A stretch of 22,691 bases of DNA, from assembly GCA_043808155.1 (NCBI GenBank), contig JAZDFD010000019.1, forward strand, positions 1 through 22,691, read 5' to 3'. The position numbers were made by a program, and so were the translations under genes. The stretch comes from Candidatus Iainarchaeum sp. GTDB taxonomy: Archaea > Iainarchaeota > Iainarchaeia > Iainarchaeales > JAZDFD01. Shown here in pieces: positions 4,908 to 13,927 of this stretch. How positions within the stretch are numbered: position 1 is the stretch's first letter; each line of letters begins with the position of its first letter. The notes under the pieces are model-generated. The model was given only the letters and a program-made list of their open reading frames with translations. It ran no database searches and was not told the DNA's origin.

Positions 4908-5537
4908 CTACTCCCTGCAGAAGTCATCCTCCAGAGCTAAAATATCGGATTCGATTTCCAAAATAAAACGTTCATCAGGATATTTAAGGTTAGCTGCTTC
5001 ATCCGAAAGAGAGAATTTATAATTAAGCCCGGAATACTTTTCACTAAAGGATATTAAATTTTGCATAAGAGAAGGACCAACCACGGCTAATTTCCGTGCT
5101 TTCTCTGCAATTGCCTTAAAAGTAGGCAAAAGTGTACAATATGCCGAATCAGGAACATTTGCAGCTAAATTTGCCTCTACAACTTCTTTTCGTTTATTAG
5201 ATAACTCCGTAAATTCATTAGCTAATATAACATAAGTAATCATTTCAAACTGCAAATCTAATGTTTCTTTTACAACAGAATCGTCTTGAGATGATTTAAA
5301 ATTAAGAACATCTGTTTTTAATTTCACTAACTCAGATTTAGACATATTTGAAAATTTATCAGACGATAAAAACAAATCTTCACCAATTACCATTTCTCTG
5401 TCAGACCAAAATTCATCAAATTCTTCAAAAACTACAGTAACATCATCTTCAACAGTCGGGGGAGTCTGGAAAAATAAGAAATAACCTGCAATTATTACAA
5501 TAAAAACAATTGTACCAATAATGATTTTTTTGTCCAT
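4908..5537 (-). CDS. Small N-terminally anchored helical protein (small partner, cassette C); paralog of 11875-12585
   Basis: MDKK plus a TM helix; helical, charged ectodomain with two Cys (AYCTLL, DDFCRE); SD-like GAGGT upstream. Confidence 0.85.
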   Translation of the reverse strand: MDKKIIIGTIVFIVIIAGYFLFFQTPPTVEDDVTVVFEEFDEFWSDREMVIGEDLFLSSDKFSNMSKSELVKLKTDVLNFKSSQDDSVVKETLDLQFEMITYVILANEFTELSNKRKEVVEANLAANVPDSAYCTLLPTFKAIAEKARKLAVVGPSLMQNLISFSEKYSGLNYKFSLSDEAANLKYPDERFILEIESDILALEDDFCRE

Positions 5538-5592
5538 CCCGCAACCTCTTTTGTATTCCTTATATGATTATATTCTTTATATTATTAGTAAT

Positions 5593-5628
5593 ATATAAAG
5601 ATTCAGGTAAATATAAAGATTCAGGTAA
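5593..5628. repeat. Perfect 18-bp tandem duplication containing a TATA-like core (TTACCTGAATCTTTATAT on the - strand)
   Basis: ATATAAAGATTCAGGTAA at 5593-5610 and 5611-5628, about 55 nt upstream of the 5537 start. Confidence 0.85.
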
Positions 5629-5750: not shown

Positions 5751-8700
5751 CTACTCCGGATCGGAAATATCAGGCTGCAAATCTGATGAACGTTTTCGCG
5801 TGTTCCAGTAGAGAAGCATTTCACTTTTAGTATTGTCTAAATCAAGGCAGGTGTAGCCTGATTCCAGCAGATTCAGATATTCTTCAAGTGAATAATAGTT
5901 GTAGAATTCTGTGTTGTTCAGTTGTAATGTGCGTGATGTTTCTGCAAGTAACTGATTGCTTACTGCACCTAGTTTTGTGGTTGTTGTTATGCCTGAACCT
6001 GAGGGATTGAATTCAACAGAAGATACTGCGTGTTCATTCGCTGAACAGATAAAAGTCAGTGCCATTGGTGTGTTTAAAGGCGTGAATACGATTGAGGAAA
6101 TGTCGCTGCCTAAATCACCTGAAATACCCGCATAATTATTTGAGCCTGAAACAGATGAACAAGTTGAGGTTAATTCACTTGCTTCATTCAAGTGATCACT
6201 AACCCATCCGCTTTCAATTTGCCAGTAAAGAATTGGTGCTGTTGTTTGAGCAGGAGTCAGAGAATAGAAAATACCTTTTGGTTCTGCATTAGTATAGTCC
6301 GTTTGTGTTCCGCCGTCTCCCGAAGGGACTTTTGTGCCCTCGTCTATTTCAACAGTAACTTTTACTGCAGATGAAGGCGAATAATAAATTTTGTCATCAG
6401 AAGTTATTTCAAAAAGCTTTCCTTCTTGTGTGAAAGAATAAGTGTCATAATAATTTGCATTTTGTGATTCTTCAATTACAGCATCATGAGCGCCTGGGTC
6501 AACAGACTTTGAAAGTATTATTTCTGAAACTAAATTAGGGTGCATGCCTGCATTGAAAGGCGTGAAAAATAATGGGTTTGCCCTGTAATTGAAAGAACTT
6601 TCTGGCTGTGATGCAGTAAGTGCAGTAAAACTATAGTGCAGTATTGCACGTGAAAGTTCAAAAGTGTCGCTTTCCCAATTGTAATTCAATAATAGTTTGT
6701 ATCTTCCTGCTTGACCTAAACTTGTTAAACTTTTCCAGTTCTCTTCTGCGAAATTGATATAATCTAAAGGATGTTTTTCGTTTTCATATAAGCCGGCATA
6801 AAAATAGTGTTCTCTGAAATTGTCATCCGAGTATTCTCCGTTGCCTGAATAATCATCTTCCAAAAGATATGAGTCAAACCTTATGTTATTCCACAAATCA
6901 GATGCATTTAATCCCTTAATATTTTTTGCGTCTGTCATTATTTTAGTTATGAGTTCATCATTATTCTCAACTGTGAGAGTGCCTGAATTTCTTATTCCTG
7001 CGGAAAATGAAATGTTTTCATAAATTTTTGTTAATAAGTCAGTAGTTAATTCAACTGTTCCATCATTATCGGAAGTTATGCTTTCAATTGTGCATGTTTC
7101 AGTTTCAGCTGAACAATCTGTAAATAATGAATTAACTAATGCGTGATACTCATTAAAAGTCATGTAATAATTTCCTGTGACTTCATCTTTTTCTGCACCT
7201 AAAAGATTCATTTGTACTTCATCAAAGTTATCATCTGAAATTGTTGCAATAATTTCAGCGTCATCAAATCCAGCGTCACCTAAATCTTCATTTTGAGAGC
7301 CAACTGAGACCTCTAACCTTGTTAAATCTAATACCACAGATATGAAAGTTGCAGGTTGTGATTCATTTGATTCTTCGTTTTCTGCATTTTCTTCATTATC
7401 AACTTCAAAATCATACTGACTTAGAATTTCATTTTTTGAATTTCTGAAAAATAAATATGTTGTTGGTATGTCTGAACTGTCAGTAATTTCCATTTGTTCT
7501 TTTGTCCACAGATATAAATGTGCAGTGTCTTTCAGTTCATCAAAATCAACATTATCAAAACCCCATTTTCCAGTGTAGGCTTCGATGTCTGTAAAATTGT
7601 CTGAACTTTCAGTGAATTTTTTGATTTGCACAGCTTTTTTAGAAAGCGAAATAGAAAATTGTGTTGCATCACAAAACTTTGCATTTCCCGAATCATCACA
7701 TTCATTAATACTTACATCATCCCAGCTCCAGTCAAATAATAATCTGTCAAATCCGTATTTGAGATATGCCTGTTCTCCTGTTTCACCAGATTCGCCTGTA
7801 TGACCAAGATTGCAAGAAGCCAACTCAATTGTGCCTGTTGCACCTGGTTGTGAAGCACGGTAAATTATTTTTACAATAATTGAATCTTCTAAAATCCACG
7901 TACTATCACTTTGTTTTACTGCTGCACAATATTTTACAAATTTATAATCTGCATCCCGAAGAATGTCCATATTAACTCCTGCTGTCATGTAAGCCCTGTT
8001 AGTTTCAAGCATATACAAATTTTGTCCTGGAACAATTGTTTCGCCTGCGGGTGCAAAAATCCAGGTGTTTGACATTTCATTTTCAGAAGTAAAACAATCC
8101 AAATTATTTGTTTCTTCAAGTGTGAGATTATCGCCTCCACCTAAAACTTGCCAGAACAAAACAATTCCTGTTTCTGGTAAATCATTATTGTTTATAAAAA
8201 ATCTTGGTCTTAGAGGATTGCCTTTAGTTAATTCATAATATTGGAGTTCGTTTTCAGACAGAGGTGCAAGAACTGAATTGGGTTCACTAACAGTCGCTAA
8301 AAATAAATTGGTAGGAAAATTTTCACGAACGTATTCCGATGCACGTTCCATAAATAAATTATTTGCAGAACCTACTACTGGCTCAGTATCGTCAGCTAAA
8401 TTTTGATTAAAACCTGAGGGAGTTATTCTGTTTAAAAATACACTGCAGTTTGCTATTTCACTTTGATAATAGTCAGGACTTAATCTGCAGTGGCAGAGAC
8501 CGGCAGTTCCCTCTGCACAAATATCAGTTGCTGTGCTCCCAATACAATAATTTGAGGAATATCCATTATTGCAGGTGTATTTTCCTGTTGTTGCAGGTTT
8601 GAAAGTATCACATAATGTGTCACACGACTTAGAATAAATTGTTGTGGCTTTTTCAACTTCGGGTGCGGGTGGACCTACAAATGGTTCAGGTGCGGGTGTT

Positions 8701-9155: not shown

Positions 9156-9610
9156 CAAACCCCCTCCTGAAGAAGATTAACTTGGCCGTTTTTGGTTTCA
9201 AAAAATAATGGCTTTTCTTCAGCTGTTCCTGAAGAAGGTTCTAAAAATACAACTTTGTAAAGTGCATCTCTGTCTGCAAACCCAATGTAATAACCCCAGC
9301 CATCTCCATCGTGGTACATGGGATTTACTTCTGCCTGTCCAAAGGCAATTTCAGAACGATCAACTGCGTTATAAGTTGGGCAGGTATCGGAATAAGATGA
9401 ATCTGCTTTGTAAAGTCTTACAACTCCTTTGGTTTCATCTGAGGCTAATTCATCTGCAATGTCAGGTAATGCAGCAGTATAAATTGGCGCATCGTAATAG
9501 AAATAGAATCCTTCTGATTCATCAACTGGTGTTTGGTTCATGAAAAATAAAAAACCAAAAACAATTATAATAATTAAAAAAAAACCTGCAACAATCACTT
9601 TTTTGTCCAT
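9152..9610 (-). CDS. Small N-terminally anchored protein (small partner, cassette B), 152 aa
   Basis: MDKK plus a TM helix; SD-like GAGGGCGG; beta-rich ectodomain; stop overlaps the start of the next gene. Confidence 0.85.
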   Translation of the reverse strand: MDKKVIVAGFFLIIIIVFGFLFFMNQTPVDESEGFYFYYDAPIYTAALPDIADELASDETKGVVRLYKADSSYSDTCPTYNAVDRSEIAFGQAEVNPMYHDGDGWGYYIGFADRDALYKVVFLEPSSGTAEEKPLFFETKNGQVNLLQEGVC

Positions 9611-9662
9611 ATAACCGCCCTCATAAAGGTGTTTTAGTTAATAATTATTAAGTATCTGGATG

Positions 9663-9671
9663 TATATAAAA
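9663..9671 (-). promoter_or_regulatory. Putative TATA box for cassette B
   Basis: TTTTATATA on the - strand about 55 nt upstream of ATG 9610. Confidence 0.5.
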
Positions 9672-9680
9672 CATGACACT

Positions 9681-11882
9681 CTAATTGACCTCTTTTCCAT
9701 ATGAAACTGCCATTGTTTGTGTTGATTTTGTTGTTGTTTCATCAGTAACAAGGAAAATTACAGGGTGTCTGTGAGTCTGTGAAGCAAATTCAACTCTGTA
9801 AAGTCCGGACACTGTACCTGCCGGAAAAGCCAAATAATAATTATTACCCCTAGTATCAGAATCTAAATTCAGCAAATTTAAGTTTATGTTGACTAATGAA
9901 CCAGAATCATTTTCTGATTGCAAGGAATATACATTTGCTATTTGCTCGTTAAAATTATAATTAGCATAGCGAGAATAAAATATCACAAATTCATTCCAAA
10001 TTGTTCCAAATTCGGGGCCTGAGAGGGGTGTTTCTTCCAGAATTTCTTCTGGTTCTTCGACATCGATTTCAGCAGGATTAATTATTGTAAGAACTGCACC
10101 ATCAGAATCATGCGGTTCTGAACTCTCAACTTTACCATTATCATCAGCATCAATACCTGCACAAAACTGAGCACGACTCAAAACATTTGGTAAAGATTCG
10201 ATAAATGCGGGATTTGAAAGATAACCTGTTTCGATTCCATTATTATTGGAAACAACTGGACCAATAATTTCAGATGTTTGGATATTTGGAATTCCATTAA
10301 TGCTGAAACAGTCTTCATTGTCAGGCGGTTGCCACACAATTATGTTTTTACCTTCACAGGATTCTAAATCAGGAGTGTCACCATAAAGATAAATTATTTT
10401 TCTAAAATTTCCTGGTAAAACTAACATAGGCGGCACGAGAGTTAAATTAGTAATTACTGTTTTGCTCGTGCATTCTCCGGCAGCAGGCGTTTCATTTTCA
10501 TAGTTATAGTAATTATTCATTGGTGTGTCTTCAAGATTTGTTAAACCATAACTGCAAGCAATTTCATGATCGCAGGCAGAGTCGAAATAGAAGTAATGAC
10601 CTTGGTGGCCTGCAGTTGCTAATCTGTTCGGAAGCCACCTATTTTTCATTTCTGGTGAATCTGGAGAAATATCTCTGCCGGGCCAAACACCAGTATATAC
10701 ATTGTTTTGGATTCCCTGACTGTAATCGTAACCGCGAATATCAAAATACTGCCACTTGTCATCAATATACCAAACCTGATCTTCATAATAAGTAAAACCA
10801 ACACCTAAAATGCGACCTTGTGAATCAGTTGCAAATCTATAACCAGTATAATCATTAACATATTGAATCACAGTATATTGGTTTGCTGTATCTTTATTGG
10901 TTACTTGTTCCCAGAATTTAACATTTGGAAGTGTTGAGACATAAAATTTATCAACAGGCCCATCATCAAAAATATCAAAATTTTGAAGGATTTCAGAAAC
11001 AATATCATATGTATTTAAATTTAATTCATCAAGATTGGAAAAATCACCAAGAGAATATTGTTCCTGAATTATGCCTGATTTTGGAATAAATATTTTCTTA
11101 GAAACAGTTTTGAATTCAACTGGATTTCCTGCATTATCAGTATCCAAAGGTAAATTTTGGGCGTTATCAGTTATAACAATCAGATACCTGGCACTCCAAT
11201 TGGCGCCGGTTTTATAATCATGTCCTTGAATAGTTGGTGGCATGGCAGGAGAACCAAAAACACACGCTTTGTCATCTAAACAGTTGCCAGCAATGCTGTT
11301 GTAACAATATGCGCTTCCTCCGTCTAAAAGATAAGCATTTATTACATCAGGACAAACAGTTAAAAGTTGCTGGGCAACATCGTAGGCAGACCCTGTTGTA
11401 CCAATAGTCACTAATGTCCCATCTTTAAGCAAGGCAATCGCAATTCTAGCAGAAGCTTCAGTCAAATCCGAAGAGTGGGATTGTTTTAGTATGTCTTCAA
11501 TGTTATTAATTGCTTCGCCATTATGAATAATTCTGAAAAGCATATTATCAGCAGTGCCTGCACTGTTGCGGGAATCAACTAAATAAGTGTATGTTCCGGG
11601 GATTATGTGAATCTCTCTTTCACCTGAAGGATTACCATCATAAATGACACCACCTATTCTCGCAGGTCTTGCATCAGTACTATTTTCAAAACCATTTCCA
11701 AAGTCGCCGGTAATCACAGTCACATCGGATTTAGCATTATAATTACTGAACTCAGACGTAGGTATAGCAAAAACATACGGGTTAGTATGCCTTTCAATAC
11801 ATGATGTATCTGCAAATACTATTTCCGACATATTGACAAATATTAAAATTGATAAAATACAGAAAATTATTTTTTTATTCAC
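9681..11882 (-). CDS. Secreted modular protein with an N-terminal NAGPA/phosphodiester-glycosidase-like domain (large partner, cassette A), 733 aa
   Basis: GTG start overlapping the upstream stop. Signal peptide MNKKIIFCILSILIFVNMSEIVFA. SARIAIALLKDG…AYLLDGGSA resembles the NAGPA PRTAIG…A(I/L)NLDGGGS motifs. Confidence 0.8.
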   Translation of the reverse strand: MNKKIIFCILSILIFVNMSEIVFADTSCIERHTNPYVFAIPTSEFSNYNAKSDVTVITGDFGNGFENSTDARPARIGGVIYDGNPSGEREIHIIPGTYTYLVDSRNSAGTADNMLFRIIHNGEAINNIEDILKQSHSSDLTEASARIAIALLKDGTLVTIGTTGSAYDVAQQLLTVCPDVINAYLLDGGSAYCYNSIAGNCLDDKACVFGSPAMPPTIQGHDYKTGANWSARYLIVITDNAQNLPLDTDNAGNPVEFKTVSKKIFIPKSGIIQEQYSLGDFSNLDELNLNTYDIVSEILQNFDIFDDGPVDKFYVSTLPNVKFWEQVTNKDTANQYTVIQYVNDYTGYRFATDSQGRILGVGFTYYEDQVWYIDDKWQYFDIRGYDYSQGIQNNVYTGVWPGRDISPDSPEMKNRWLPNRLATAGHQGHYFYFDSACDHEIACSYGLTNLEDTPMNNYYNYENETPAAGECTSKTVITNLTLVPPMLVLPGNFRKIIYLYGDTPDLESCEGKNIIVWQPPDNEDCFSINGIPNIQTSEIIGPVVSNNNGIETGYLSNPAFIESLPNVLSRAQFCAGIDADDNGKVESSEPHDSDGAVLTIINPAEIDVEEPEEILEETPLSGPEFGTIWNEFVIFYSRYANYNFNEQIANVYSLQSENDSGSLVNINLNLLNLDSDTRGNNYYLAFPAGTVSGLYRVEFASQTHRHPVIFLVTDETTTKSTQTMAVSYGKEVN

Positions 11883-12585
11883 TGAACTCAGCCCCGCATC
11901 CTTTTTTCCAGCTGTTTAGGAAAAGTTTTTTTTCTTCAAATTCAATTTCTAAATCTGAGAGTGTTTCAATGTCAGTGTCTAAATGTATTTTCTTTGTTAA
12001 AGCAGGGTGTTTTACTGAAAAGACATTTGCAAGTTGAACTAAAATTACGGAATTGTCTTTTAGTGGTTCAAGAGAAGCAACATATGTTTCATAAATATCA
12101 AGATTTGCACAGATTTCTTCTTTCGATTCTAGTGATGCGATTGTTTCTTTTTGTTCAGAGAGTTCACTTTGATTTTGTTTTAGTAAATTAATGTAATCTG
12201 CAAATGCAATGTTCAGTTCAACGAAATCAGTTGCCGCAGTTGGGACTAATTTTTGAGATTCTAAATCGGATTTGTAAATCATGAAGGATCTGCTGACTGT
12301 ATCATAGTTAAAATTTTTTATTTCATCTGAAGAGAGTGATGAAATTATTGCCTGTGATTCAATATCAATATTCTGACTTTCCCAGGTAGCTTTTACAAAA
12401 CTAAAAGTGTCATTTGTTATTTGCTTGTCTGCTGTATCTGTAACTGTGATATTGACATTAATAGTTGATTCAAAATCATTAATTGGGGCTGTGTTAGAGG
12501 TGAAAAATGGATAGCCAGTAAATAAAACAAATGAAATTGCCAAAATTAGCAGAATAACAGCGGAAAATAATATTTTTTTGTCCAA
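11875..12585 (-). CDS. Small N-terminally anchored helical protein (small partner, cassette A), about 236 aa; paralog of 4908-5537
   Basis: TTG at 12585 after GGGGTGTGTGTGA gives MDKKILF…, matching the other two small genes. TM helix; two Cys (EICANL, KKGCG). Confidence 0.82.
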   Translation of the reverse strand: MDKKILFSAVILLILAISFVLFTGYPFFTSNTAPINDFESTINVNITVTDTADKQITNDTFSFVKATWESQNIDIESQAIISSLSSDEIKNFNYDTVSRSFMIYKSDLESQKLVPTAATDFVELNIAFADYINLLKQNQSELSEQKETIASLESKEEICANLDIYETYVASLEPLKDNSVILVQLANVFSVKHPALTKKIHLDTDIETLSDLEIEFEEKKLFLNSWKKGCGAEFSE

Positions 12586-12678
12586 ATTCACACACACCCC
12601 TAAGCTTAGATTATATAATGGTTAATATATTTAATATTGAGAACTAATATATATTGTTTAGGGCATGAGATATATAAC

Positions 12679-12770
12679 AGGTGAAAAAATGAGCAATACT
12701 GACGTTTTGATTGTTGGTTCGGGTCCTGCGGGAATTACTGCTGCGATTTATGCCTTTAGAAAAGGGCTTA
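12679..12770 (+). repeat. 92-bp direct repeat, copy 1 (trxB SD plus first 27 codons)
   Basis: Identical by eye to 13836-13927 (AGGTGAAAAAATGAGCAAT…AGAAAAGGGCTTA). Confidence 0.97.
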
Positions 12771-12781
12771 ACGTATTTTAA
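12689..12781 (+). pseudogene. trxB: Truncated 5' copy of thioredoxin reductase (30 aa)
   Basis: Translates as MSNTDVLIVGSGPAGITAAIYAFRKGLNVF*; the first 27 aa are identical to the intact gene. Confidence 0.9.
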
Positions 12782-12819
12782 ATTGAACGATGGTTTTATA
12801 AATTGAACGATAGTTCAAT
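12779..12819 (+). promoter_or_regulatory. TATA box flanked by tandem operator-like sites
   Basis: TAAATTGAACGAT occurs at 12779 and 12799. Perfect palindrome ATTGAAC-gata-GTTCAAT at 12802-12819. TTTATAAA at 12795-12802. Confidence 0.7.
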
Positions 12820-12848
12820 ATTAGCATAACCACTGTTGAGTGACACTT

Positions 12849-13412
12849 ATGAGTAATATTTTTGATAGCTGTGTAACATGGAAATTGCTTTCCTATTTCT
12901 TAACGGAGCCATGGAAAGAATCATATGTGAAAGAGCTTGCTAAAAATATGAAAATAAGCTCTGGTTCCGTAAGCGTTCTTTGCAAAAAATTGTGCAGCGA
13001 GAATCTGCTTAAAAAAGAAATCAGAGGAAATCTGCTTTTGTATAAATTAAATAAAAACAATCCTATTATGAAAGAACTTCAAAAAGCGTATCTTTTAAAC
13101 AGACTCACTAAAGCTAAATTTACTCAAAAATTTTTTGATACAGATGAGAGCATTATTTCTCTTGCAATTTATGGTTCCTATGTAAGCGGAGATGTTGATG
13201 ATAAAAGCGACCTTGATGTTTTGATAATCACACAATCAAATGCTAATTTCTCAGAAGCCGTGAGAAAAATTGCAAAAGAAATTAAAATTGATGTTAATAT
13301 AAATAAATTTACACTGCTTCAGTGGAAAAAACTGTCTGGAAAAAATGACCCCTTTTATAAAGAAGTTATATCAAATCACATTCTTTTAAAAGGGAGCAGT
13401 CTGGTGATTTAA
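12849..13412 (+). CDS. wHTH-fused minimal nucleotidyltransferase (MNT family antitoxin-like), about 187 aa
   Basis: N-terminal wHTH (YVKELAKNMKISSGSVSVLCKKL…GNLLLYKLN) and a GSx10DxD motif (GSYVSGDVDDKSDLD). ATG 12849 follows SD-like GAGTGA. Confidence 0.9.
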   Translation: MSNIFDSCVTWKLLSYFLTEPWKESYVKELAKNMKISSGSVSVLCKKLCSENLLKKEIRGNLLLYKLNKNNPIMKELQKAYLLNRLTKAKFTQKFFDTDESIISLAIYGSYVSGDVDDKSDLDVLIITQSNANFSEAVRKIAKEIKIDVNINKFTLLQWKKLSGKNDPFYKEVISNHILLKGSSLVI

Positions 13413-13841
13413 ATGTCAGAAGATTTGTTTGAGGAAGGGTTGCTGAAAAAAATTCCGCCTTCATGGGAAAAATGTGTTAAATCACTGGAAATTTCAGAAA
13501 ATTATCTTGAAGAATCTAAAACTGCTTTAAGAGTGAAAATTTACAACAGCTCAATTCTTGCGTCATATAATTCTATGTTCCATGCTGCCCGTGCAGCATT
13601 ATTTCTCAAAGGAGTAAAAGAGCGGAGTCATTATGCAATAGTGGAATATCTTCTGCAGAACTGCAAAAAAGAATTAGGAATTGATTTAATAAATCAGTTG
13701 GATTCTTATAGGTTAATGAGACATACAGTTTCTTATGGACTTGATGCTAAAATTAGTGTAGATGATGCTGAATCTGCAATAGAATTTGCAGAGAAATTTT
13801 TGGAAAAAATTGAAGACTTTGTTGAAAATGAAAAAAGGTGA
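13413..13841 (+). CDS. HEPN domain protein (UPF0332/COG1895-like), putative toxin partner
   Basis: SYNSMFHAARAAL…SH…RLMRHTVSYG…AESAIEFAEKFL. Starts directly after the MNT stop, with SD GGTGA at 13403-13407. Confidence 0.9.
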   Translation: MSEDLFEEGLLKKIPPSWEKCVKSLEISENYLEESKTALRVKIYNSSILASYNSMFHAARAALFLKGVKERSHYAIVEYLLQNCKKELGIDLINQLDSYRLMRHTVSYGLDAKISVDDAESAIEFAEKFLEKIEDFVENEKR

Positions 13842-13927
13842 AAAAATGAGCAATACTGACGTTTTGATTGTTGGTTCGGGTCCTGCGGGAATTACTGCTG
13901 CGATTTATGCCTTTAGAAAAGGGCTTA
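13836..13927 (+). repeat. 92-bp direct repeat, copy 2 (includes the HEPN stop codon and the trxB start)
   Basis: Identical to 12679-12770. Confidence 0.97.

Follow-up and report, generated by a model that had tools for sequence, protein, structure and literature searches.

A two-gene MNT-HEPN cassette between duplicated trxB starts in an Iainarchaeum contig, and its mostly archaeal relatives

The trxB locus

Contig JAZDFD010000019.1 of the Candidatus Iainarchaeum sp. assembly GCA_043808155.1, analyzed over its positions 1 to 22,691 and referred to below in its whole length as the window, carries directly ahead of its trxB gene two genes that code for a minimal nucleotidyltransferase (MNT) and a HEPN protein, a textbook pair, and that are enclosed by two copies of the trxB 5' end (Table 1). 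Self-comparison of the window reproduced the perfect 92-bp duplication described in the initial annotation, down to its coordinates: the copies R1 and R2 are 100% identical over 92 nt with a start-to-start offset of 1157 nt, and outside them the sequences part at once, to the left with C/A at 12678/13835 and to the right with AC/GT at 12771-72/13928-29. The pair is the sole long direct repeat in the 22.7-kb window, where the next repeat families reach at most 38 nt at 64-88% identity, and by our own arithmetic a 92-nt exact repeat has an expectation of ~1e-47 in a sequence of this size. Reading of the open reading frames (ORFs) likewise agrees with that annotation in that a 30-aa TrxB stub arises from the first copy and an intact trxB from the second, and the HEPN stop codon (TGA 13839-13841) was found inside the second copy, as had been claimed.

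The intact TrxB protein scored 332 bits (E 2e-99) against TIGR01292, for which the curated cut-off is 343, and its best relative in a search of 5.8 billion proteins is 60% identical. Judging from the 4-nt gap between the HEPN stop and its ATG, trxB is probably co-transcribed with the inserted genes, and the AT-rich sequence between the divergent gene and R1 may still be a working promoter. Two properties of the insert were considered and set aside: its G+C content of 0.31 differs from that of the flanks (0.35-0.38) by too little to argue for a foreign origin, and microhomology at the junctions amounts to only 2-3 nt in AT-rich sequence and is uninformative.

Table 1. Features at and around the duplicated trxB start of the window (R1 and R2, repeat copies 1 and 2; wHTH, winged helix-turn-helix).
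Feature	Coordinates	Strand	Description
Divergent 240-aa gene	11875-12597	-	Upstream neighbor of repeat copy 1
Native trxB upstream (intergenic) region	12598-12678	+	AT-rich, TATA-like runs; between the divergent 240-aa gene and repeat copy 1
Repeat copy 1 (R1)	12679-12770	+	trxB ribosome-binding site AGGTGA, ATG 12689, first 27 codons
TrxB stub ORF	12689-12781	+	27 TrxB and 3 foreign codons, 30 aa; stop 12779-12781
Inserted cassette, 1065 nt	12771-13835	+	Between R1 and R2; matches a ~1.0-kb segment common to unrelated loci
Promoter/operator block	12773-12818	+	Tandem 20-nt units 12773-12792 and 12793-12812, both with a TATA-like box and then TTGAACGAT (12783-12791, 12803-12811)
Inverted half-site GTTCAA	12813-12818	+	Closes the promoter/operator block
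wHTH-MNT gene, 187 aa	12849-13412	+	N-terminal MarR/ArsR-like winged helix, C-terminal minimal nucleotidyltransferase
HEPN gene, 142 aa	13413-13841	+	AF0298/UPF0332-like; last sense codon and stop (13836-13841) inside R2
Repeat copy 2 (R2)	13836-13927	+	Doubles as HEPN stop, trxB ribosome-binding site AGGTGA and trxB start
Intact trxB, 306 aa	13846-14766	+	CATC redox motif; ATG 4 nt past the HEPN stop

Genes and operator of the cassette

The cassette opens with a compact control region in which the motif TTGAACGAT has two matches against 0.28 expected, and the same promoter/operator block was found upstream of MNT in many related loci. By analogy with characterized HepT/MntA pairs, the wHTH domain of the MNT protein would bind the double operator and repress the operon. 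For the MNT gene the start at ATG 12849, which gives 187 aa as in the sequence P0001, was preferred over GTG 12840. The product matched the Pfam families Polbeta (9e-9) and NTP_transf_2 (2e-7), and MarR_2 was matched in 28 of 40 members of the MNT family; the GS-x10-DxD motif is present in P0001, with G109, S110, D121 and D123 invariant or nearly so across 40 relatives. The NCBIfam MntA equivalog model gave the window MNT only 23 bits at a cut-off of 60. An AlphaFold model of the wHTH-MNT protein (predicted local distance difference test score, pLDDT, 96) had as its top fold matches Shewanella MntA (7bxo, 6m6w) for one half and wHTH proteins of the SmtB, MarR and AspA types for the other. We presume the protein to be antitoxin and autorepressor in one.

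The MNT stop codon (13410-13412) abuts the HEPN ATG at 13413. The HEPN protein matched PF05168 (5e-17), and its nearest solved relative is AF0298 (2hsb, 9e-9). It lacks the canonical Rx4-6H motif: the residue next to the conserved R103 is His, position +5 holds an invariant Tyr and not His, and two invariant histidines, H57 and H73, lie further toward the N-terminus; an AF0298-type exception with an alternative His is described in the available text of PMC3710099, and the window HEPN agrees with it. Again by analogy, HEPN is presumed to be an RNase toxin, which the MNT would neutralize by AMPylation, as in characterized HepT/MntA pairs. We count the gene pair within the HEPN/MNT toxin-antitoxin (TA) class; it resembles the type VII systems of that class in gene order (MNT, then HEPN), in the MntA-like MNT fold with its GS-x10-DxD motif and in a patchy spread across phyla, but differs from them in the N-terminal MarR/ArsR-like wHTH of its MNT, in the conserved double operator and in an AF0298-like HEPN without the canonical His of Rx4-6H.

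A discrete unit in many genomes

A HEPN alignment was used to scan one genome per GTDB species, and the best 80 of 103 confirmed loci, 34-48% identical, were retained and numbered; the host genome of the window is absent from this set. A full-length wHTH-MNT lies directly upstream of HEPN in 73 of the 80 loci, and the MNT family comprises 239 clusters (50% identity) at E ≤1e-10. The hosts are Micrarchaeota, Woese- and Pacearchaeota, Iainarchaeum, Aenigmatarchaeota, Undinarchaeota, Thermoplasmata, Methanosarcinales, Methanoperedens, Bathyarchaeia, one Asgard archaeon and a few bacteria. One genome contributes two loci (L055 and L058), the cassettes of which are distant (MNT 29%) and say nothing on two specificities per genome.

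All-against-all blastn gave many pairs of loci in which the flanks are unrelated and the shared DNA is limited to ~1000-1040 nt, with the promoter block at one end and the HEPN stop at the other. The pairs L017/L024 (88.6%, 1039 nt), L015/L021 (85.5%, 1025 nt), L018/L046 (81.5%, 1017 nt) and L068/L076 (77%, 1017 nt) are of this kind. In border alignments the conserved block runs from the B recognition element (BRE)/TATA region to the stop codon, and the junctions in the window fall at these borders, the left one (12771) 2 nt ahead of the conserved block and the right one at the HEPN stop. Within the 130 nt upstream of MNT, 26 of 73 loci have the TTGAAC/GTTCAA hexamer, compared with 61 of 730 random segments. 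No plasmid or phage carrier emerged from the plasmid and phage collections, in which neither a 1.4-kb region (blastn) nor the MNT protein (tblastn, E 1e-8) found a match.

The closest relatives of the cassette genes lie on very short contigs: P0002, the closest MNT relative at 79%, on one of 1158 nt, one base off the 1157-nt circle considered below and a lead only, and the closest HEPN relatives P0005 (99%) and P0006 (64%) on contigs of 936 and 686 nt. These lengths could be coincidence or could reflect assemblies breaking at cassette borders. Separately, two related Methanosarcinales loci (L007:6663-6875 and L057:3648-5030, ~87% identical) differ by a ~1.4-kb indel shortly downstream of the module.

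Direct repeats at the cassette borders

The initial annotation had suggested a look at whether MNT-HEPN pairs elsewhere are flanked by duplicated gene starts, and such cases were found, with the start of a TRM5 gene repeated at L026 and L031 and with repeats enriched around modules in general. Gapped blastn repeats of at least 35 bits flank 12 of 72 modules and 4 of 246 random placements. Exact direct repeats of at least 20 nt, within 800 nt on each side, flank 10 of 73 modules, compared with 9 of 345 random placements in the same loci. When other gene units of 800-1400 nt served as the control and at least 300 nt of flank was required on both sides, repeats of at least 35 bits were counted at 10 of 67 modules and 7 of 221 control units (Fisher p=0.0012, odds ratio 5.4), some of the control hits being array neighbors that share one three-copy repeat. 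A peptide-level search (tblastx), which at ≥22 bits flagged 15 of 66 modules and 18 of 189 controls, was noisy and was left out of the counts.

The repeats range in length from 20 to ~215 nt, and their positions follow the borders of the cassette. In the window, L049, L055, L031 and L005, the promoter block is where R1 ends, 65-80 nt ahead of the MNT start. The start of R2 falls from 6 nt ahead of the HEPN match end to 64 nt past it in the window, where that end is the stop codon, and in L026, L031, L051, L021, L058, L055 and L005; L031, L055 and L005 fit tightly on both sides, and L026, L051, L021 and L058 on the right. In L055, L069, L021, L049 and L052 the repeat is present three times, in arrays ordered R-cassette-R-cassette-R. 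The array in L055 consists of the PCNA 3' end, a 467-aa gene with a ParE pair, R, MNT-HEPN, R and an MFS gene; that in L069 of R, MNT-HEPN, R, an AAA_14/DUF4143 ATPase gene and R; and that in L049 holds both MNT-HEPN and HicAB.

Other repeats and repeat-bounded units were seen as well. In L030 (5151-6595, Undinarchaeota) tblastx indicated a likely older duplication around the module, ~207 nt long with 49% peptide identity. A 385-aa ORF of L049 (9903-11057, minus strand, no Pfam match) lies between 275-nt direct repeats of 91% identity (9357-9631 and 11152-11426, within 9357-11426) and may be another repeat-bounded cassette on the contig that carries the MNT-HEPN/HicAB array. Small units other than MNT-HEPN stand between direct repeats at L054:3004-4311 (44 nt, 95%), L074:7335-8456 (74 nt, 81%) and L015:3666-5225 (32 nt, 91%), and small cassettes bounded by repeats may be common to these archaeal genomes in general.

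Origin of the repeats in host-gene ends

Where a gene could be assigned, the repeats duplicate the end of a host gene. Gene starts are repeated in the window (trxB), at a TRM5/TYW2 methyltransferase gene in L026 (25 nt, 100%) and L031 (45 nt, 91%) and at a small ORF in L049; the HEPN stop is inside the repeat in L026 and L031, as in the window, and L031 also has an upstream stub ORF. Gene 3' ends are repeated at PCNA (its last 20 codons, L055), at a GFO_IDH oxidoreductase gene (the C-terminus, L034) and at a small membrane ORF (L069). By tblastx, the C-terminus of an ORF upstream of the module in L003 (533-1690, Micrarchaeota), probably a surface protein, is repeated past the HEPN stop with peptide and stop kept, likely another older duplication. 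The repeats of L058, L046, L021, L005/L006, L051 and L076 are non-coding or have no assigned gene.

The repeat ends show no terminal inverted repeats and no shared motif. Neither strand of the window repeat forms a hairpin (z +0.3), nor do the repeats of L055, L058, L069, L049, L052 and L021 (z -1.5 to +0.45). That of L046 alone folds: its copies (5036-5241 and 6718-6826; ~110-215 nt, 83-94% identity) contain a long hairpin (z -2.7, minus strand), lie ~190 nt from a tRNA-Leu gene (7023-7109) and may, unlike the other repeats, represent an element resembling a miniature inverted-repeat transposable element or a structured recombination site. Among 13 loci, L046 was the only one with a tRNA gene; a suspected tRNA 3' end next to the L058 repeat was not borne out. 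The Thermoplasmata loci L005 (549-1736) and L006 (5336-6503) are 75% identical in DNA over 1174 nt including both repeat copies and have the same 22-nt core, which reflects either an orthologous site or a repeat that travels with the cassette.

Coding-preserving differences between repeat copies at two loci

At two loci the repeat copies have diverged in an informative way. Of the 5 differences between the stub and the real TRM5 start in L031, spread over 15 codons, one swaps the start codon (ATG/TTG) and the other four are synonymous changes at third positions. For L055, the orphan copy 3 and the true end of PCNA differ at 5 positions, which make up a two-base synonymous change in a Leu codon, a synonymous change in an Ala codon and an exchange of stop codons (TGA/TAG). 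Among 200,000 simulated trials, the same number of random substitutions, placed on the functional copy, preserved function in 0.021% for L031 and in 0.048% for L055. The orphan copy in L034 has a diverged 5-codon tail with the stop position unchanged. Because the differences in L031 and L055 preserve coding, they point to two functional alleles that were joined and not to duplication in place followed by decay. The simplest reading of these sequences is that the copies diverged as functional alleles in different genomes and were later joined when a cassette with the end of one allele underwent att-type recombination with the resident gene; a cassette-borne copy would have to stay functional because, after a Campbell-like event, it supplies part of a working gene end. 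Extension of this origin to the repeat in the window would be by analogy only.

Proposed mechanism

With moderate confidence, we read the insert in the window as a self-contained ~1.07-kb TA cassette that was inserted before trxB by a Campbell-type event and that belongs to a widespread, mostly archaeal family that lacks recombinases of its own and recurrently shows att-like repeats of host-gene ends. A circle consisting of the cassette and a carried gene-end copy would recombine with the chromosomal gene by a Campbell-type single crossover, which would leave the target gene intact together with a stub. Were the two copies to recombine with each other, a 1157-bp circle would be released and trxB would return to a plain locus; this excision geometry, put forward in the initial annotation, is consistent with the confirmed coordinates. 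The enzyme would be that of host homologous recombination or a recombinase supplied in trans, and the candidates are RadA-type host recombination, RecA-independent recombination between repeats of the kind seen in the Escherichia coli island H47 and a trans-acting enzyme resembling the pTN3 integrase. We favor a homology-dependent reaction because the repeats are arbitrary in sequence and variable in length. New targets might, as a conjecture, be gained by imprecise excision that captures a neighboring gene end, in the manner of specialized transduction.

The absence of an integrase or transposase from the window, also claimed initially, was borne out by both family collections: none of the 13 large window ORFs matched an integrase, transposase or recombinase family in Pfam, nor did nine of them in NCBIfam, although six of the 13 matched no family and could include an unrecognized recombinase. 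The same was true of the surroundings of related cassettes, where 0 of 83 ORFs within 3.5 kb of the 12 repeat-positive loci matched such a family and about one third matched no Pfam family.

As for the earlier idea of a small TA unit entering by homology to a gene start, the entry of such a unit by recombination with a copied host-gene end fits the discrete ~1.0-kb cassette in unrelated contexts, the enriched repeats, the HEPN stop inside the repeat at L026 and L031 and the coding-preserving copies at L031 and L055. The limitation to gene starts did not hold, since 3' ends are targets as well (L055, L034 and others). Entry by homology fits repeats made of host-gene ends but does not by itself explain arrival at new targets.

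Several observations weigh against the Campbell-type origin or restrict its reach. Homology alone cannot explain the first arrival of a cassette at a new target, and a recombinase encoded at another place in the genome could be acting in trans. Most copies have lost their repeats or arrived in another way, 60 of 72 modules being without a repeat of at least 35 bits. The coding-preserving argument comes from two loci with five differences each, copy 2 of L055 is frameshifted, and the repeat in the window, being perfect, is uninformative on allele origin. An empty trxB site was not among the sequences compared, the closest TrxB relative being 60% and the best HEPN locus 48% identical; L006 is the only locus with a trxB homologue, 4 kb from its module.

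Synteny adds a further complication. L026, L031, L035, L013 and L061 are syntenic, and the module shared by L026 and L031 has diverged about as much as its neighbors (MNT 50%, HEPN 58%, TRM5 38%, HerA 63%), which would make this an old shared site. The repeats of L026 and L031 differ in length and in distance from MNT, and the syntenic L035, L013 and L061 are without the stub, so that the repeats appear to have been formed or refreshed separately. Excision and re-entry, re-invasion from relatives or gene conversion could each have produced this outcome, which fits a dynamic element but was not predicted.

Alternative explanations

The alternative that comes closest, although we think it unlikely, is duplication of the target in place: a staggered break or replication template switching led to 92 bp being copied in repair, in the manner of a very long target-site duplication of variable length, and a cassette-borne trxB copy never existed. 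One event of this kind yields both junctions and the perfect repeat, arrival at new targets needs no prior homology, and the wide range of repeat lengths is expected in the absence of a fixed recombination site. A decaying copy, however, should not display the coding-preserving differences of L031 and L055, the stop and tail of L034 or the peptide and stop kept in L003. Three-copy arrays that reuse one repeat are unexpected from random staggered breaks, and random breakpoints would not recur at the same cassette borders in many unrelated loci.

The same recurrence of borders bears on a second alternative, in which a virus or plasmid with an integrase entered the trxB 5' end and subsequent deletions left an addictive TA pair between two att sites, as an archaeal counterpart of the cis-mobilizable elements (CIMEs) discussed below. 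Direct repeats taken from a target gene's end are the usual scar of integration by an integrase, archaeal att sites do occur in protein-coding genes according to the available text of PMC8371274, and the tandem arrays resemble accretion at one att site. Nevertheless, we consider decay improbable because the cassette borders are tight and recurrent. The repeats hug a minimal cassette, with R1 2 nt from the promoter block and the HEPN stop inside R2 in the window, and independent random deletions should not stop repeatedly at the same borders; moreover, unrelated loci share the cassette alone, without other DNA of an element, and no integrase remnant was found in the window or among the 83 flanking ORFs.

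An assembly product, in which the contig threads a graph loop made of a plain trxB chromosome and a 1157-bp circle that exist apart, or of two strain haplotypes sharing a 92-bp node, is very improbable in our judgment. Some assemblers work with k-mers shorter than a 92-bp repeat, and close relatives of the cassette genes sit on very short contigs (1158, 936 and 686 nt), such as result when assemblies break at repeats or strain variants. Even so, a loop needs both novel junctions, R1/cassette and cassette/R2, in real reads, and a plain locus with a circle, or split haplotypes, would themselves imply recombination at the trxB start. P0005, the HEPN relative that is 99% identical, has the same C-terminus, which requires the cassette/R2 junction. 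The same architecture is present in at least 12 independent loci of metagenome-assembled genomes from different studies and assemblers, and L026, L031 and L049 lie on contigs with k141_ names, which we take to denote MEGAHIT with k = 141, where repeats of 25-53 nt are shorter than k and the integrated order is backed by single k-mers.

That the unit is an integron-type gene cassette, moved by IntI via attC and landed before trxB, is hardly credible. Integrons and integrase-less attC clusters do exist in Archaea, with TA genes constituting 10.5% of functionally annotated archaeal cassette proteins according to the available text of PMC9668308, and L055, L069, L021, L049 and L052 have repeat-separated arrays. 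There is, however, no room at the 3' end of the cassette in the window for an attC site, an imperfect palindrome of at least 57 nt: the trxB ATG follows the HEPN stop by 4 nt, and the promoter block takes up the 78 nt ahead of MNT. The repeat is trxB coding sequence and, judged by fold z-scores, has no hairpin, nor do six of the seven repeats from other loci; IntI was not found in the window or in the flanking ORFs of the 12 repeat-positive loci, and the window showed neither attI nor an array of attC sites. An insertion sequence or transposon was rejected outright, given a unit without a transposase and without an inverted repeat pairing its ends and a duplication that is 92 nt here and not of fixed length elsewhere.

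Relation to known elements and significance

In its framing, the cassette resembles integrative elements with their attL and attR. As in integrase-dependent elements and CIMEs, the direct repeats derive from the end of a target gene, the target remains intact, and arrays share one repeat. A CIME retains attL and attR but has lost its genes for integration and transfer, is moved by the integrase of a related element and, like the cassette, has no integrase itself (PMC5704250). The cassette departs from this scheme in its size of ~1 kb, in borders that delimit one TA operon at many independent sites and in targets that in some cases are 5' ends including the ribosome-binding site and the start codon. 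Of the features of an integrative element, the direct repeats of the target gene are present, while a tyrosine or serine integrase gene was not found in the cassette, in the window or in the 83 ORFs near related cassettes. CIMEs have been described in bacteria; a description from archaea was not found in our literature search, as far as the text of the sources was available.

We know of no cognate integrase-bearing or helper element for the cassette. Precedents for movement without an own recombinase do exist. In the available text of PMC5426353, the Escherichia coli H47 island is small, has short direct repeats and no site-specific recombinase of its own, and is excised by functions of the host, all of which parallels the cassette; it differs in being bacterial and in carrying other cargo, and that text covers excision only and reports neither a family-wide pattern nor duplication of gene ends. 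The integrase of the Thermococcus plasmid pTN3 gives the outcomes of homologous recombination on segments of ~100 bp, according to the available text of PMC5495485, and thereby sets a precedent for a trans-acting enzyme able to use arbitrary repeats of ~100 bp. Such an integrase was found neither in the window nor at the 12 loci, however, many of the cassette repeats are only 20-53 nt long, and the hosts belong to other phyla. Integron cassettes and the archaeal clusters of attC sites lacking an integron integrase (CALINs), as portrayed in the available text of PMC9668308, share with the unit the format of small, promoter-bearing TA cassettes in arrays separated by repeated sequence but have structured attC sites where the unit has host-gene fragments as its repeats; IntI was not found with the unit.

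Loci that are syntenic apart from a recently inserted MNT-HEPN pair have been reported, without a mechanism of movement, under the term 'mobile two-gene module' (Makarova et al. 2009, PMC2701414, available text), and how TA pairs move has been an open question since such modules were recognized. The HEPN/MNT literature mentions no flanking duplications of host-gene ends in the text available for PMC2701414 and PMC3710099. More broadly, no description of repeat-bounded MNT-HEPN cassettes or of integrase-less archaeal cassettes at gene ends was found in the searchable text of the literature (including PMC2701414, PMC3710099, PMC4158269, PMC6563490, PMC8371274 and PMC9668308; subscription journals and supplements excluded). 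On our reading the unit described here is a non-autonomous, att-bounded integrative cassette. It has defined borders, is recurrently accompanied by att-like duplicates of host-gene ends and encodes no recombinase, and as such provides a concrete and testable object for that question.

A bolder extension, possible but in our view rather doubtful, is that these are minimal selfish cassettes without a recombinase gene, in which small circles carrying the end of a conserved host gene home in by homology-dependent recombination, gain new 'address tags' by imprecise excision, accumulate at gene ends in integron-like arrays and bring trxB or other essential genes under the cassette promoter, in archaea and a few bacteria. 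If homing driven by homology were true, genes would flow in DPANN and other archaea by a route that standard finders of mobile elements miss, since these key on integrases and transposases, and a selfish element would have tied itself to the expression of an essential gene. If a helper integrase exists instead, these would be, as far as the available text of the searched literature shows, the first small non-autonomous integrative cassettes described in archaea.

Other features of the window

The window has a G+C content of 0.36; it contains no tRNA and gave no Rfam match at the gathering score. Many of its genes code for giant surface proteins (1135, 1179 and >1387 aa) with beta-helix/NosD and Ig-like domains. 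Together with the distant TrxB relatives and the six large ORFs that match no Pfam or NCBIfam family, they suggest that the host branches deeply and is probably DPANN-like. A short tandem duplication of an AT-rich 18-nt unit is located at 5572-5626, in the intergenic space between the minus-strand genes for a 209-aa protein and the 1135-aa protein.

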